Origin: Escherichia coli
GTDB lineage: Bacteria > Pseudomonadota > Gammaproteobacteria > Enterobacterales > Enterobacteriaceae
Reading direction: 5' to 3' (one strand)
NCBI RefSeq assembly: GCF_001677475.2
Contig: NZ_CP015229.1
DNA: 64,000 bases
Shown: positions 14,303-53,712 of the stretch, piece by piece
Layout: each line of letters begins with the position of its first letter
How positions within the stretch are numbered: position 1 is the first letter of the stretch
The notes under the pieces: model-generated
Told to the model about the DNA's origin: nothing
Databases searched by the model: none
Seen by the model: the letters and a program-made list of their open reading frames with translations, nothing else
Position numbers and translations under genes: made by a program

Positions 14303-15169
<867 letters not shown>

Positions 15170-20730: not shown

Positions 20731-20809
20731 TGATGTGATGCCCGGTCGCTCCGGCTATCGGGCCTGAACAAGCAAGAGTGGTTAGCCGGATAAGCAATGT
20801 TATCCGGCT
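20731..20809. repeat. REP-like inverted repeats between fucI and fucK
   Basis: gcccggtcgctccggctatcgggc and perfect palindrome agccggataa-gcaatg-ttatccggct. Confidence 0.55.
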
Positions 20810-20826
20810 ATATTGCAGGAGCGATT

Positions 20827-22245
20827 ATGAAACAAGAAGTTATCCTGGTACTCGACTGTGGCGCGACCAATGTCAGGGCCATCGCGGTTAATCGGCAGGG
20901 AAAAATTGTTGCCCGCGCCTCAACGCCTAATGCCAGCGATATCGCGATGGAAAACAACACCTGGCACCAGTGGTCTTTAGACGCCATTTTGCAACGCTTT
21001 GCTGATTGCTGTCGGCAAATCAATAGTGAACTGACTGATTGCCACATCCGCGGTATCGCCGTCACCACCTTTGGTGTGGATGGCGCTCTGGTAGATAAGC
21101 AAGGCAATCTGCTCTATCCGATCATTAGCTGGAAATGTCCGCGAACAGCAGCGGTAATGGACAATATTGAACGGTTGATCTCCGCACAGCAGTTGCAGAC
21201 TATTTCTGGTGTCGGAGCCTTTAGTTTCAATACGTTATATAAATTGGTGTGGTTGAAAGAAAATTATCCACAACTGCTGGAACGCGCGCACGCCTGGCTC
21301 TTTATTTCGTCGCTGATTAACCACCGTTTAACCGGCGAATTCACTACTGATATCACGATGGCCGGAACCAGCCAGATGCTGGATATCCAGCAACGCGATT
21401 TCAGTCCGCAAATTTTACACGCCACCGGTATTCCACGCCGACTCTTCCCTCGTCTGGTGGAAGCGGGTGAACAGATTGGTACGTTACAGAACAGCGCCGC
21501 AGCAATGCTCGGCTTACCCGTTGGCATACCGGTGATTTCCGCAGGTCACGATACCCAGTTCGCCCTTTTTGGCGCTGGTGCCGAACAAAATGAACCCGTG
21601 CTCTCTTCCGGTACATGGGAAATTTTAATGGTCCGTAGCGCCCAGGTTGATACTTCGCTGTTAAGTCAGTACGCCGGTTCTACCTGCGAGCTGGATAGCC
21701 AGGCAGGGTTGTATAACCCAGGTATGCAATGGCTGGCATCCGGCGTGCTGGAATGGGTGAGAAAACTGTTCTGGACGGCTGAAACTCCCTGGCAAATATT
21801 GATTGAAGAAGCTCGCCTGATCGCGCCTGGCGCAGATGGAGTGAAAATGCAGTGTGATTTATTGTCGTGCCAGAACGCTGGCTGGCAAGGAGTGACGCTT
21901 AATACCACGCGGGGGCATTTCTATCGCGCGGCGCTGGAAGGGTTAACCACGCAATTACAGCGCAATCTACAGATGCTGGAAAAAATCGGGCACTTTAAAG
22001 CCTCTGAATTATTGTTAGTCGGCGGAGGAAGTCGCAACACATTGTGGAATCAGATTAAAGCCAATATGCTTGATATTCCGGTAAAAGTTCTCGACGATGC
22101 CGAAACGACCGTCGCAGGAGCTGCGCTGTTCGGTTGGTATGGCGTAGGGGAATTTAACAGCCCGGAAGAAGCCCGCGCGCAGATTCATTATCAGTACCGT
22201 TATTTCTACCCGCAAACTGAACCTGAATTTATAGAGGAAGTGTGA
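20827..22245 (+). CDS. fucK: L-fuculokinase, 472 aa
   Basis: ORF 20797..22245; FGGY sugar kinase; start placed at ATG 20827 after gcaggag RBS (longer ORF start 20797 also possible). Confidence 0.9.
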
Positions 22246-49548: not shown

Positions 49549-51795
49549 CTATAACCCTCCGCGAATCAGCCCGCCCATGCCGCGACGCTCCATAAAGGCT
49601 GCAACCTGATGGCGAACTTCGGTCGCCAGTTGCGCTTCCAGACTACGCTGCGCAAGATTCTCTGCTTCGGCATAATCAATGCGCCGCAGCAGGTATTTTA
49701 CCCGCGCTACAGAACGTCCGTTCATAGACAGATGGCGATACCCAAGCCCAATGAGGATTGCCACGCACATGGGATCGCCCGCCATTTCACCGCACAAACG
49801 GAGATCGATACCATGTATTTCCGCTTCCCGGGCGATCATCGCCAGAGCTCGTAACATTGCAGGATGAAGGCTGTCATAAATGTTCGCCACCCGGGTATTG
49901 TTGCGATCAACGGCCAGGATGTATTGAGTCAGATCGTTGGTGCCAACAGAGATGAAATCGACCCGCTTTGCCAGATGCGGCAACATAAATACCATTGACG
50001 GCACTTCCAGCATGATGCCGATACGTGGTTTGGGAATTTCGTAACCGATCATCTCCTCGACTTCACGTCCGGCACGTTCAATCAGGCGGCGTGCTTCGTC
50101 AACTTCATCGAGGCTGGTGACCATCGGCAACAGAATATTCAGGTTGCCCGTAGCGGCATTAGCACGCAGCATCGCCCGCACCTGGATCAAGAAGATCTCC
50201 GGCTGATCGAGCGTAATGCGAATCCCACGCCAACCCAGGCATGGATTCTCTTCGCTGATCGGCATGTAAGGCAGCTGCTTATCTGCTCCGACATCCAGCG
50301 TACGTAAGGTGACAGGTTTATCATTGAACATTTGCAGCATCCCCTGATACTGCGCCACCTGTTCTTCTTCCGACGGGAAACCACTTTGCAGCATGAATGG
50401 GATTTCAGTGCGATAAAGACCGATGCCATCAATACGGCTGCCCAGTTTTTCTTCATGTTCCGGGCTTAAACCAGCATTGAGCATGACTTTTATACGCTCA
50501 CCGCTTTTTAACTGCGCGGGTAAATTGACGTCATCTTCCGCCAGACGGCTAAGCTCAATCTCTTCACTAATTAGCCGCTGATATTCTTGCAGCAGTACCG
50601 GCTCCGGATCGACCAGCAATTCACCGCGATAGCCATCAACGATCAGCGTCCTACGATGCAACACTGAAGGTTGAATGTCCGCCCCCATCACCGTAGGAAT
50701 ACCCAGCGCGCGTACCATAATCGCCGCATGGGAGTTGGCCGCACCATCGCGTACGACGACGCCGACTAAGCGATCCTGAGGCAACTCCGCAAGGGTCGTC
50801 GCCGACAATTCATCTGCCACCAGAATGAAACGTTCCGGCCAGGCGTTCGGCCCTTGATTAGCGTCATCAAGATGAAACAGCAATCGCTGACCCAGCGCAC
50901 GTAAATCGCCAGCCCGCTCTTTGAGATAGTTATCGCTTAGCGCGGCAAACTGTTCGGCAAATTTTTCAATGACCGTTTTTACCGCCCATTCTGCCACCGA
51001 GCCTTTATCAACCTCGGCAAACAATTCGCGACGCAGCCGGGTGTCCGAAAGCAGGTGCGAGTAAAGATCGAAAATAGCCGCCGTTTCTTTTTGTGCACCG
51101 GCGGCAAAGCGTTTGCTGTAGCGGCGAAACTCGTTTGCCGCTTCTTCCAGCGCCCCGGTCAGTCGTTCGCGTTCCAGAGCCGGATCCAGCGTTGATGCCT
51201 GATACACCTGTTCCATTAAAGGTAACGTGGCATCCTGCCAGCCTTCGGCAATCGCCACACCAGGTGCTGCCGGTAATGCGCGGATTCGCGTCTGGCGATA
51301 TTGCCCAAACAGTGCAGTCAACTGCGACTGAGAAAGAATAGCTGCCATCTGGGTGGCAAGCGTCACCAGGAAGGATTCTTCACTTTCGTCATACTGGCGC
51401 AACTCTCGTTGCTGTACCACCAGTACACCAAGCAACTGGCGACGTTGAATAATTGGTACGCCTAAAAACGCGCGGAAACGTTCTTCTTTTACGGAGGGGA
51501 TGTATTTGAAGCTGGGGTGCTTTTGCGCATCTGCAAGGTTTATCGGTTCCGCCAGCCTGCCAACCAGGCCGACGATCCCTTCATCAAACGCGAGCGTTAC
51601 AGTGCGACCGCGTGGTTTTTTCAGCCCCCGGGTCGCCATCAGGTAGTAACAACGTCGATCATGATCGGCCAGGTAGACCGAACAGACCTCGGTATCCATC
51701 GCAAGACAGATGTCGGTAACCAGAATATTTAACGCCTCATTCAGGCGTGGTGCGCTGGCTACCTTTTCGACTATTTCGCGCAGGCGAGTGAGCAT
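49549..51795 (-). CDS. ptsP: PEP-protein phosphotransferase enzyme I-Ntr (GAF + EI domains), 748 aa
   Basis: ORF 49549..51795; N-terminal GAF domain, C-terminal enzyme I PEP-utilizing domain. Confidence 0.94.
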   Translation of the reverse strand: MLTRLREIVEKVASAPRLNEALNILVTDICLAMDTEVCSVYLADHDRRCYYLMATRGLKKPRGRTVTLAFDEGIVGLVGRLAEPINLADAQKHPSFKYIPSVKEERFRAFLGVPIIQRRQLLGVLVVQQRELRQYDESEESFLVTLATQMAAILSQSQLTALFGQYRQTRIRALPAAPGVAIAEGWQDATLPLMEQVYQASTLDPALERERLTGALEEAANEFRRYSKRFAAGAQKETAAIFDLYSHLLSDTRLRRELFAEVDKGSVAEWAVKTVIEKFAEQFAALSDNYLKERAGDLRALGQRLLFHLDDANQGPNAWPERFILVADELSATTLAELPQDRLVGVVVRDGAANSHAAIMVRALGIPTVMGADIQPSVLHRRTLIVDGYRGELLVDPEPVLLQEYQRLISEEIELSRLAEDDVNLPAQLKSGERIKVMLNAGLSPEHEEKLGSRIDGIGLYRTEIPFMLQSGFPSEEEQVAQYQGMLQMFNDKPVTLRTLDVGADKQLPYMPISEENPCLGWRGIRITLDQPEIFLIQVRAMLRANAATGNLNILLPMVTSLDEVDEARRLIERAGREVEEMIGYEIPKPRIGIMLEVPSMVFMLPHLAKRVDFISVGTNDLTQYILAVDRNNTRVANIYDSLHPAMLRALAMIAREAEIHGIDLRLCGEMAGDPMCVAILIGLGYRHLSMNGRSVARVKYLLRRIDYAEAENLAQRSLEAQLATEVRHQVAAFMERRGMGGLIRGGL

Positions 51796-51807: not shown

Positions 51808-52338
51808 TTAACCTCTTTTACGTCGATAAGCAGATGCGTTTTGTGGTTTTGGCGTATTTTCCTGCAGTGACATCACCACACTCGCGAACTCTTTCATTAC
51901 CCTACGGTAGACATCACGTTTAAATGACACCACCTGTCTGACCGGATACCAGTAACTTACCCATCGCCAGCCGTCAAACTCTGGTGTACTGCTGGTTTGC
52001 ATATTGATTTCTGCATCGCCGCTCACCAGCTGCAAGAGAAACCATTTTTGTTTTTGGCCGATACAAACCGGCTTCGTGTCCCAACGCACCAAACGTTTCG
52101 GTAATTTGTAGCGCAACCAGTTACGCGTTGAAGCAAGGATTCGAACGTCTTTGCGGCTTAATCCTACTTCTTCAAACAATTCACGGTACATCGCCTGCTC
52201 TGCGGATTCTCCGGGGTTGATTCCGCCTTGCGGAAATTGCCAGGAGTGCTGACCAAATCGCCGGGCCCACATTACCTGCCCCTGGCGATTACAAATCACG
52301 ATACCTACGTTTGGGCGGTAGCCATCGTCATCAATCAC
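51808..52338 (-). CDS. rppH: RNA pyrophosphohydrolase (Nudix), 176 aa
   Basis: ORF 51808..52338; Nudix box [22 protein letters not shown]. Confidence 0.94.
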
Positions 52339-52479
52339 CGGACTACCTCAAAATAAAGCTTTATATACGAATGATTGTTTCATACTCCAGGAAGACGGTA
52401 AACCACTCTCTGCAGGGCATTACACACTAATAACAATTGAATAACTCACAGTTATGTGCAGAGTTATAAACAGAAGAAG

Positions 52480-52850
52480 GGGTGGATAGCCGTTTTTATT
52501 CACCTTTTCTGTGGATAGAGTTGTGAAGAACTACGGAATTACTACGGGAAAACCCGGAGCATTCTGAATAAGCCCGATATAGACATTTTAAAATATTCAT
52601 TATCAGTCAATGCATTACATGTAATTTGAGTAATAAAAAAGAGTAATTCGTGACCCAGGTCACACCTCTCATTTACGGGTTGGCGAAAGATCAACCAATG
52701 CGGTATTTATCCACAGAATGTGCCACTAAGTTAAGCACTGAGCCACTAAAAACTGGAGTTTCGTCGCACGTCAAGGCTGTAAATGGAAACAGTAGTGGAG
52801 GTTTTTCACAGTTATCCCAGCTTTCTGTGGATAACATGGTGTAAGATCCT
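52480..52850. promoter_or_regulatory. DnaA-box cluster in rppH-mutH intergenic region, consistent with DARS2 (DnaA-reactivating sequence 2); boundaries approximate
   Basis: Perfect DnaA boxes ttatccaca at 52708..52716 (fwd) and tgtggataa at 52826..52834 (rev); 1-mismatch box tgtggatag 52510..52518; weaker box-like 9-mers nearby; DARS2 is reported to lie between ygpD(rppH) and mutH. Confidence 0.6.
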
Positions 52851-53022
52851 GTTTATTTTCAGTGACCAGATTTGGAAAACCCGTTGCAGTGTTGCGCAAC
52901 TCGATTACCGACAATCTAAAAAGCAATATAAATCAGAGAATTGAACAACGCATGTGGAAAAAGTTACACTGCGAATATTCGGCACAGAAATGCTGTTTGT
53001 TTTTTAACCAAGGTATCGTGAC

Positions 53023-53712
53023 ATGTCCCAACCTCGCCCACTGCTCTCTCCTCCCGAAACTGAAGAACAATTGTTAGCGCAAGCACAACAACTTTCTGGT
53101 TATACATTGGGAGAACTGGCGGCACTTGCTGGGCTGGTGACGCCGGAGAATTTAAAACGCGATAAGGGCTGGATTGGCGTGTTACTGGAGATCTGGCTAG
53201 GTGCCAGCGCAGGGAGTAAACCTGAGCAAGATTTTGCTGCTCTGGGCGTGGAACTTAAAACTATCCCTGTGGATAGTCTTGGTCGTCCGCTGGAAACAAC
53301 ATTCGTTTGTGTTGCCCCGTTAACGGGTAATAGCGGGGTGACCTGGGAAACCAGCCACGTGCGCCACAAGCTCAAACGCGTGCTGTGGATACCGGTTGAA
53401 GGCGAGCGCTGCATCCCGCTGGCGCAGCGTCGCGTAGGATCACCGTTGCTGTGGAGCCCGAATGAAGAGGAAGACCGGCAGCTACGCGAAGACTGGGAAG
53501 AATTAATGGATATGATTGTTCTCGGTCAGGTTGAGCGGATTACCGCTCGTCACGGGGAATATTTACAGATACGACCGAAAGCAGCGAATGCGAAAGCGCT
53601 TACCGAAGCCATTGGTGCCCGGGGCGAACGGATTCTGACGCTGCCACGCGGCTTTTATTTGAAGAAGAATTTCACCAGTGCACTACTGGCCCGTCATTTT
53701 CTGATCCAGTAG
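53023..53712 (+). CDS. mutH: DNA mismatch repair endonuclease MutH, 229 aa
   Basis: ORF 53023..53712; matches E. coli MutH N-terminus [20 protein letters not shown]. Confidence 0.95.

Follow-up and report, generated by a model that had tools for sequence, protein, structure and literature searches.

The window analysed here is a stretch of 64,000 nucleotides of Escherichia coli DNA, in which the ORF list and the RefSeq annotation place exactly 684 bp between rppH and mutH. The order of genes around this gap, ptsP-rppH on one side and mutH-ygdQ-ygdR-tas on the other, matches that of MG1655 (ORF list and RefSeq annotation), and the gap is present in 5424 of 5426 complete E. coli genomes with a top identity of 99.6%. 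In the GC profile the gap has values of 0.35-0.43 compared with 0.48-0.56 in its flanks, and the coordinates together with this profile bear out an AT-rich, non-coding gap of 684 bp, as had been described in an earlier reading made from the letters of the sequence (the sequence-only reading). The genes and the gap are arranged as follows.

49549..51795, minus strand: ptsP, beyond rppH
51808..52338, minus strand: rppH, the left flank of the gap
52339..53022: the rppH-mutH divergent intergenic region, AT-rich, 684 bp (ORF list, RefSeq annotation, GC profile)
53023..53712, plus strand: mutH, the right flank of the gap

The sequence-only reading had described three DnaA boxes in the gap and had interpreted them as the DnaA-reactivating sequence DARS2. 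The perfect box TTATCCACA is indeed present on the plus strand, although its true position is 52707..52715 and not 52708..52716, an error of one nucleotide; the perfect inverted box TGTGGATAA lies at 52826..52834 as claimed, and the one-mismatch box TGTGGATAG was found again at 52510..52518. We mapped published oligonucleotides to the window by script: those in Table S1 of Kasho 2014, the primers with which Frimodt-Moller 2015 made its deletions and, from the 2024 DnaA ChIP-seq study, the "double box" sequences together with the qPCR primers. All 27 of the 27 DARS2 oligonucleotide sequences tested map in the gap with 0-2 mismatches, which fixes the limits of the 455-bp fragment, of the deltaCore deletion and of the critical 21-mer. 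A check on whether the published coordinates of DARS2 map elsewhere therefore returned the gap itself, where the published primers place the element. The features are listed below.

52473..52927, plus strand: 455-bp DARS2 fragment, from primer MutH-4 (52473..52491) to primer MutH-2 (52909..52927)
52473..52705, plus strand: minimal DARS2, the deltaRight construct pOA67 (primers MutH-4 to MutH-11), with activity as given in Kasho 2014
52496..52530: deltaCore deletion, defined by MutH-14/15, holding boxes I-III
52496..52504, plus strand: core DnaA box I, TTATTCACC, one mismatch, inside deltaCore, cross-genus identity 0.94
52510..52518, minus strand: core DnaA box II, CTATCCACA, head-to-head with box I and 5 bp apart from it, the one-mismatch box of the sequence-only reading
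52522..52530, minus strand: core DnaA box III, TTCTTCACA, 3 bp from box II
52563..52571, minus strand: DnaA box IV, TTATTCAGA, between substitution primers Ksh-30 and Ksh-31, dispensable, identity 0.70
52589..52617, plus strand: IBS1-2 (IHF), composed of TAAAATATTCATT, ATC and AGTCAATGCATTA, an exact match to the IBS block of insIBS-10U
52641..52655, plus strand: FBS1 (Fis), dispensable, 15 nt replaced by Ksh-3/Ksh-4, oligo FIS-1U
52649..52664: CRP box CGTGACCCAGGTCACA, overlapping FBS1, with invariant half-sites, a genomic-SELEX 16-mer
52682..52706, plus strand: FBS2-3 (Fis), comprising the 18-nt substitution block 52682..52699 (Ksh-20/21) and the critical 21-mer 52686..52706 (MutH-24/25)
52707..52715, plus strand: DnaA box V, TTATCCACA, perfect, the first perfect box of the sequence-only reading, invariant in 80 species
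52812..52846, plus strand: DARS-core-like module around box VI, TTATCCCAG-CTTTC-TGTGGATAA-CAT-GGTGTAAGA, in a 9+5+9+3+9 layout
52826..52834, minus strand: DnaA box VI, TTATCCACA, perfect, the second perfect box of that reading, invariant, no assigned function
52883..52897, plus strand: FBS6 (Fis), dispensable, 15 nt replaced by Ksh-9/Ksh-10, oligo FIS-4U at 52875..52905

Alignment of the gap with that of MG1655 gave 684 columns with 12 SNPs and no indels (98% identity), with seven of the 12 SNPs falling inside the 455-bp fragment. All six DnaA boxes are intact and, like IBS1-2, the FBS1 block, the 18-nt FBS2-3 block and the FBS6 block, identical to those of MG1655. The critical 21-mer carries a single SNP (C to G relative to MG1655, at 52702), which is unlikely to affect Fis binding because the 18-nt FBS2-3 block does not include it and genera differ from one another at this position in our alignment of relatives.

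The core at 52496..52530 reads TTATTCACC-TTTTC-TGTGGATAG-AGT-TGTGAAGAA, which is the published DARS core layout. All three core boxes carry one mismatch, and box II alone had been listed in the sequence-only reading; the two perfect boxes on which that reading had centred are boxes V and VI, both outside the minimal DARS2 at 52473..52705. Boxes IV-VI are dispensable for stimulating initiation (Kasho 2014). Since one-mismatch boxes make up the functional DARS core, perfect DnaA boxes are a poor guide to it. IBS1-2 is about equidistant from the core and FBS2-3, with a centre-to-centre distance of ~95 bp each way, in agreement with the position that Kasho 2025 gives for the IHF site of DARS2, roughly halfway from the core to the Fis sites, and FBS2-3 contains an invariant GATC at 52689.

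Binding of DnaA, IHF and Fis to DARS2 has been demonstrated in MG1655 by footprinting, EMSA and ChIP, and the 2024 DnaA ChIP-seq study of that strain gave three strong peaks at DARS2. The "double box" sequences of these peaks match the window exactly, gTTCTTCACAactCTATCCACAg at 52509..52531 and another, which encloses box VI, at 52825..52846. When the peak positions are read as NC_000913.3 coordinates and converted to those of the window, a conversion made by us, they fall near 52485, 52667 and 52862, i.e., near the core, box V and box VI. Because the binding sites are identical to those of MG1655, all three proteins would be expected to bind here as well.

The identity and end-points of the fragment, its location between rppH (ygdP) and mutH, the core layout and the IBS1-2/FBS2-3 region all agree with DARS2 as published, and we found no evidence against this identification. 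The cluster of boxes between rppH and mutH is almost certainly DARS2, the non-coding DnaA-reactivating sequence 2 of Escherichia coli, as the sequence-only reading had proposed, and as such a thoroughly characterised, already known element. Sequence identity, the mapped positions of the elements, conservation and the probable non-coding nature of the overlapping ORFs are what was assessed by computation here.

For the comparative analysis we took 80 loci from a MutH scan of Enterobacteriaceae, one genome per species and covering more than 20 genera, and aligned their gaps with that of the window (81 sequences; identities are relative to the window). rppH lies upstream of mutH in all loci that reach far enough. 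The neutral level, taken as the identity at four-fold degenerate sites, was 0.48 for rppH and 0.39 for mutH. The core boxes showed identities of 0.94-0.98, the spacer that separates boxes I and II being invariant, and box V and box VI each reached 1.00; the critical 21-mer had an identity of 0.70 with AAGATC invariant, IBS1-2 0.50-0.59, FBS1 0.49 and FBS6 0.47. The core, FBS2-3 and box V are thus conserved across the 80 Enterobacteriaceae species, and their deeper conservation has been published (Miyoshi 2021). A block at 52759..52882, beyond the minimal DARS2, for which the literature searched assigns no DARS2 function, is conserved like the core (identity 0.88-1.00 in the 80 species). Of the 80 aligned relatives, 79 have a gap of 678-688 bp (80 of 81 sequences with the window included), and from ~52420 to 53012 almost no indels occur in any species, even where the sequence is at the neutral level. 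Such a near-fixed spacer length fits a nucleoprotein complex whose geometry may matter. To the left of the 455-bp fragment, two further segments are conserved, 52430..52452 (identity 0.93) and 52463..52475 (identity 0.91), the latter containing TTATAAACA, invariant at 52464..52472. Both segments may be parts of the rppH promoter.

Both promoters of the flanking genes must fall in the gap, which might therefore be an ordinary divergent promoter, with the boxes acting as operators by which DnaA would control how mutH and/or rppH-ptsP are transcribed. Shimada 2014 reports an RpoD-holoenzyme SELEX peak at this locus and hexamers predicted for both directions, a review names the site "the mutH promoter", and the presence of a CRP box and of a conserved right half without an assigned DARS2 role would also be in keeping with such a function. 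However, a scan of the gap for the sigma-70 consensus returned no promoter, and the published deletions and substitutions tie nucleotide exchange to the core, IBS1-2 and FBS2-3. As the two roles are compatible, operator function would be an addition to DARS2 and not a replacement for it; we consider it possible but doubtful. A sigma-54-like sequence, TGGAAAACCCGTTGCA at 52872..52887, was rejected since its TTGCA half is not conserved. Two terminator-like hairpins occur in the gap, one of them corresponding to the CRP palindrome and the other, at 52980..52995 and accompanied by a T run, overlapping a promoter predicted by others (Shimada 2014).

The CRP box itself, CGTGACCCAGGTCACA, matches 9 of the 10 core positions of TGTGA-N6-TCACA; it shares bases with FBS1 and stands between the IHF and Fis sites. 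All 81 sequences keep GTGA-N6-TCAC around a variable spacer, with the site reading GTGATGATCATCACA in many genera, and the 82 occurrences of the pattern in 443 kb of loci are essentially all the DARS2 site. Genomic SELEX with cAMP-CRP yielded exactly this 16-mer, which was assigned to rppH (Shimada 2011); both the sequence and the SELEX listing speak for a CRP binding site. A literature search found no link of CRP to DARS2, and a search on "DnaA box VI" and on ygdP/mutH/CRP gave nothing useful.

Three ORFs overlap the right part of the gap. The sequence-only reading had noted the two on the plus strand, with 64 and 71 codons, and both are in the ORF list; the third, ygdT, is annotated on the minus strand.

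52691..52837, minus strand: ygdT, 48 codons (RefSeq), with its start inside box VI and its end just past box V
52650..52844, plus strand: 64-codon ORF (ORF list)
52862..53077, plus strand: 71-codon ORF, entering mutH out of frame

The conserved sequence could in principle code for a small protein, from ygdT or from one of the plus-strand ORFs. RefSeq annotates ygdT in MG1655 and many other genomes, RNA-seq detected transcription of b4610 (ygdT) in all seven samples, and a weak AGGA can be read in the sequence 9 nt upstream of its ATG. Transcription of the ygdT strand, however, says nothing on translation, and the reading frames are not maintained: ygdT is intact in 8 of the 80 species, the 64-codon ORF in 28 of 80 and the intergenic part of the 71-codon ORF in 9 of 80, and the in-frame stops that break ygdT are found at more than one place. 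None shows the excess of third-position changes of a protein-coding gene, the rates at the three codon positions being 0.221/0.224/0.177 for ygdT, 0.265/0.259/0.222 for the 64-codon ORF and 0.453/0.400/0.441 for the 71-codon ORF. Pfam and NCBIfam scans of the three ORFs gave no family match; a sub-threshold conotoxin match, the only hit, is meaningless. Of 35 literature hits for "YgdT", the two examined proved to be misprints of YdgT, the partner of H-NS. The DNA under ygdT is conserved (0.88-1.0) where the DnaA-box modules sit. Since the ORFs are broken in relatives and lack codon bias while the DNA is conserved, the conservation is at the level of DNA. We therefore consider a small protein very unlikely as the explanation of the conserved sequence. 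ygdT is probably not a protein gene, an ORF product translated specifically in Escherichia being formally conceivable, and the 64- and 71-codon ORFs are judged from their conservation pattern not to be genes, in line with the sequence-only reading. ygdT and the unannotated small ORFs over DARS2 are best treated as non-coding. A structured RNA finds no support either: Rfam gave no match at E <= 1 on either strand of 52200..53200, and folding z-scores ranged from -1.3 to +0.1 (-1.2 and -1.3 for the two strands of the conserved right block, -1.0 for the ygdT region and +0.1 for the mutH leader).

The original DARS2 paper is Fujimitsu 2009 (Genes Dev). The closest known system is DARS2 of E. coli K-12 MG1655 (Kasho 2014; Miyoshi 2021; Kasho 2025), which shares the locus, the flanking genes and the 455-bp fragment and differs by the SNPs described above (12 across the gap, 7 in the fragment). 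DARS1, in the bioD-uvrB intergenic region, has a 35-bp core of the same design (box I, 5 bp, inverted box II, 3 bp, box III), 24 of whose 35 positions are identical to the DARS2 core found here. Unlike DARS2, DARS1 lacks a regulatory region for IHF and Fis and needs neither protein, and its box II is perfect whereas that of DARS2 carries one mismatch. oriC resembles DARS2 in that a high-affinity box, which at DARS2 is box V, nucleates cooperative head-to-tail assembly of ATP-DnaA on low-affinity boxes 2-3 bp apart, a process assisted at oriC by IHF and DiaA. Unlike oriC, DARS2 has no duplex-unwinding element or replication start, and its oligomer evicts Fis instead of opening DNA.

Like the present locus, datA combines a cluster of DnaA boxes with an IHF site, and likewise its IHF binding is timed to the cell cycle and its DnaA ChIP signal is very strong. 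The cluster might thus be a site of the datA type, serving titration of DnaA or hydrolysis of DnaA-bound ATP and not reactivation, and it is true that the ChIP-seq signals here equal those of datA and oriC in height and that it was high affinity for DnaA by which the fragment was originally isolated (review). datA, however, promotes ATP hydrolysis on DnaA, the opposite outcome, lies at a different locus, is Fis-independent and has no head-to-head pair of boxes I and II, which is the signature of a DARS. Published assays of the DARS2 fragment show ADP release, not ATP hydrolysis. Comparison with the essential boxes 2, 3 and 7 and the single IBS of datA also showed that both the locus and the arrangement of boxes differ, and we regard a datA-like site as so improbable that it carries almost no weight. 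As a side effect, boxes V and VI may still titrate DnaA.

Chance grouping of DnaA boxes in an AT-rich spacer would be compatible with the number of perfect TTATNCACA sites in the whole window (four, with 1.74 expected, a count reached in 9 of 100 shuffles), but the conservation data already refute it, the boxes being invariant over 80 species in which neutral sites there are only 39-48% identical. Perfect boxes are not enriched across the window as a whole and the unusual feature is their clustering: two of the four lie in the gap, within ~1% of the window's length. The gap moreover holds 10 sites with at most one mismatch to TTWTNCACA compared with 1.09 per 684 bp window-wide, which makes it the densest stretch of the 64 kb for such sites; one of 2000 shuffles of the gap reached 10.

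A second module with the layout of a DARS core (9+5+9+3+9) lies around box VI at 52812..52846, inside the conserved block 52759..52882. It is identical to the MG1655 DARS1 core at 25 of 35 positions, compared with 24 of 35 for the true DARS2 core, and when all 35-mers on both strands of the window were ranked against the DARS1 core these two took the top places, the next having 21 identities. Local alignment of the module with DARS1 gave a z of 9.6, and the short repeats TCACAGTTAT, TTTCTGTGGATA and GGAAAACCCG stand beside both modules in the same order. The equivalent of box I in this module has three mismatches, so that the original search of the genome, which asked for box pairs with 0-1 misfit, would have passed the module over (review). 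As a self-sufficient DARS the module was rejected, both for these three mismatches and because the deltaCore plasmid retains it yet is inactive (Kasho 2014). The same study speculated on an unidentified, Fis-dependent third DARS; placing it at 52812..52846 is unsupported by the present data. DARS2 might consist of two modules and sense carbon status as well, the second module and/or cAMP-CRP tuning the reactivation of DnaA on the chromosome, an idea that we find speculative and rather unlikely. If true, the tuning would be beyond the sight of multicopy plasmid assays, and its effect could be on timing, on DnaA titration, or on the dependence on growth rate or carbon source. The CRP box, the second core-like module and the fixed spacer length are modest leads, not findings.

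For DARS2 itself, the following mechanism can be assembled from published work (Kasho 2014; Miyoshi 2021; Sugiyama 2019; Kasho 2025) and placed on the coordinates of the window. The MG1655 fragment stimulates ADP-DnaA to release its ADP, and it increases both ATP-DnaA and the frequency of initiation. ADP-DnaA would occupy core boxes I-III (52496..52530), where the facing boxes I and II, spaced 5 bp (Sugiyama 2019), would force the AAA+ domains of DnaA head-to-head and so loosen ADP. IHF on IBS1-2 (52589..52617) would bend or loop the DNA such that Fis at FBS2-3 (52682..52706) meets the DnaA complex on the core. ADP would then be released, and apo-DnaA would depart and rebind ATP, giving initiation-competent ATP-DnaA before each round of replication. 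At high levels of ATP-DnaA, an oligomer seeded at the perfect box V (52707..52715) is expected to extend across FBS2-5, evict Fis and switch DARS2 off; this role of box V as the seed of the Fis-evicting oligomer was reported previously (Miyoshi 2021), and the eviction would constitute a negative-feedback loop. Because the sequence is nearly identical to that of MG1655, we expect the same biochemical steps in the present strain. DARS2 is among the main chromosomal sites that time the initiation of replication in E. coli, and what the rppH-mutH gap offers here is the confirmation of this textbook element in another strain.

The gap between rppH (minus strand) and mutH (plus strand), 684 bp at 52339..53022, contains the DnaA-reactivating sequence DARS2 (published 455-bp fragment, 52473..52927), and the following features were mapped in and around it.

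52430..52452, strongly conserved segment (identity 0.93) in the stretch separating rppH from the published DARS2 fragment
52463..52475, strongly conserved segment (identity 0.91) in the same stretch
52649..52664, CRP-type palindrome CGTGACCCAGGTCACA inside DARS2, positioned between the IHF and Fis sites, where it overlaps Fis site FBS1
52689..52692, GATC within the critical FBS2-3 21-mer
52691..52837, minus strand, ygdT (b4610), 48 codons, RefSeq annotation; runs from within DnaA box VI to just past box V
52770..52775 and 52746..52751, minus strand, predicted leftward promoter hexamers inside the ygdT ORF
52812..52846, second module, around box VI, laid out exactly like a DARS core; part of the conserved block 52759..52882
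52845..52848, GATC within the third box of the box VI module
52980..53007, terminator-like hairpin and T run (CGGCACAGAAATGCTG, then TTTGTTTTTT) directly upstream of the mutH start codon

The module around box VI is identical to the core of DARS1 (bioD-uvrB intergenic region) at 25 of 35 positions, compared with 24 of 35 for the true DARS2 core. It lies outside minimal DARS2 (52473..52705) and shows almost no variation in an alignment of the gaps of 80 Enterobacteriaceae species. The possibility that the module is an independent DARS was ruled out because the deltaCore plasmid, which lacks the true core (52496..52530), retains the module yet is inactive.

Within DARS2, the GTGA-N6-TCAC half-sites of the CRP-type palindrome are invariant in all 81 aligned Enterobacteriaceae sequences, whereas the spacer is variable. 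Genomic SELEX with cAMP-CRP has already recovered this 16-mer, which was assigned to rppH (Shimada 2011), and we found no mention of CRP in the DARS2 literature open to search. The two conserved segments closer to rppH may be promoter elements of that gene or additional DnaA sites. Within them lie TTATAAACA at 52464..52472, which is invariant and resembles a DnaA box with one mismatch, and one copy of the TCACAGTTAT repeat.

Two promoters have been predicted in the gap (Shimada 2014). The leftward one (TTGACG-18-TTTAGT), whose -35 hexamer is invariant across species whereas its -10 is not, would produce transcripts running in the direction of rppH and crossing box V, the Fis sites, the IHF sites and the core. 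The hexamers of the mutH promoter (TCGGCA-18-TTTAAT) are overlapped by the hairpin, in which the T run is conserved but not the stem; owing to a SNP, the predicted -10 reads TTTAAC in this strain.

The ygdT reading frame is intact in only 8 of the 80 species, codon-position bias was absent across them and no protein family match was found; the annotation of ygdT is probably spurious, placed on non-coding DNA that is conserved.

Elsewhere in the window, two consensus DnaA boxes were found, both isolated and consistent with chance occurrence.

14523..14531, TTATGCACA, outside the DARS2 gap
21264..21272, TTATCCACA, inside a 482-codon ORF (20797..22245)

GATC (Dam) sites occur just twice in the gap, and neither varies among the 80 species. 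Of the 81 aligned sequences, 80 have an rppH-mutH gap of 678-688 bp, and 52420..53012 is nearly free of indels in the 80 species, including in segments that have drifted to the neutral level (identity 0.35-0.5). Taken together, the near-constant length and the near-absence of indels in the alignment suggest selection on the geometry of the whole region 52420..53012.
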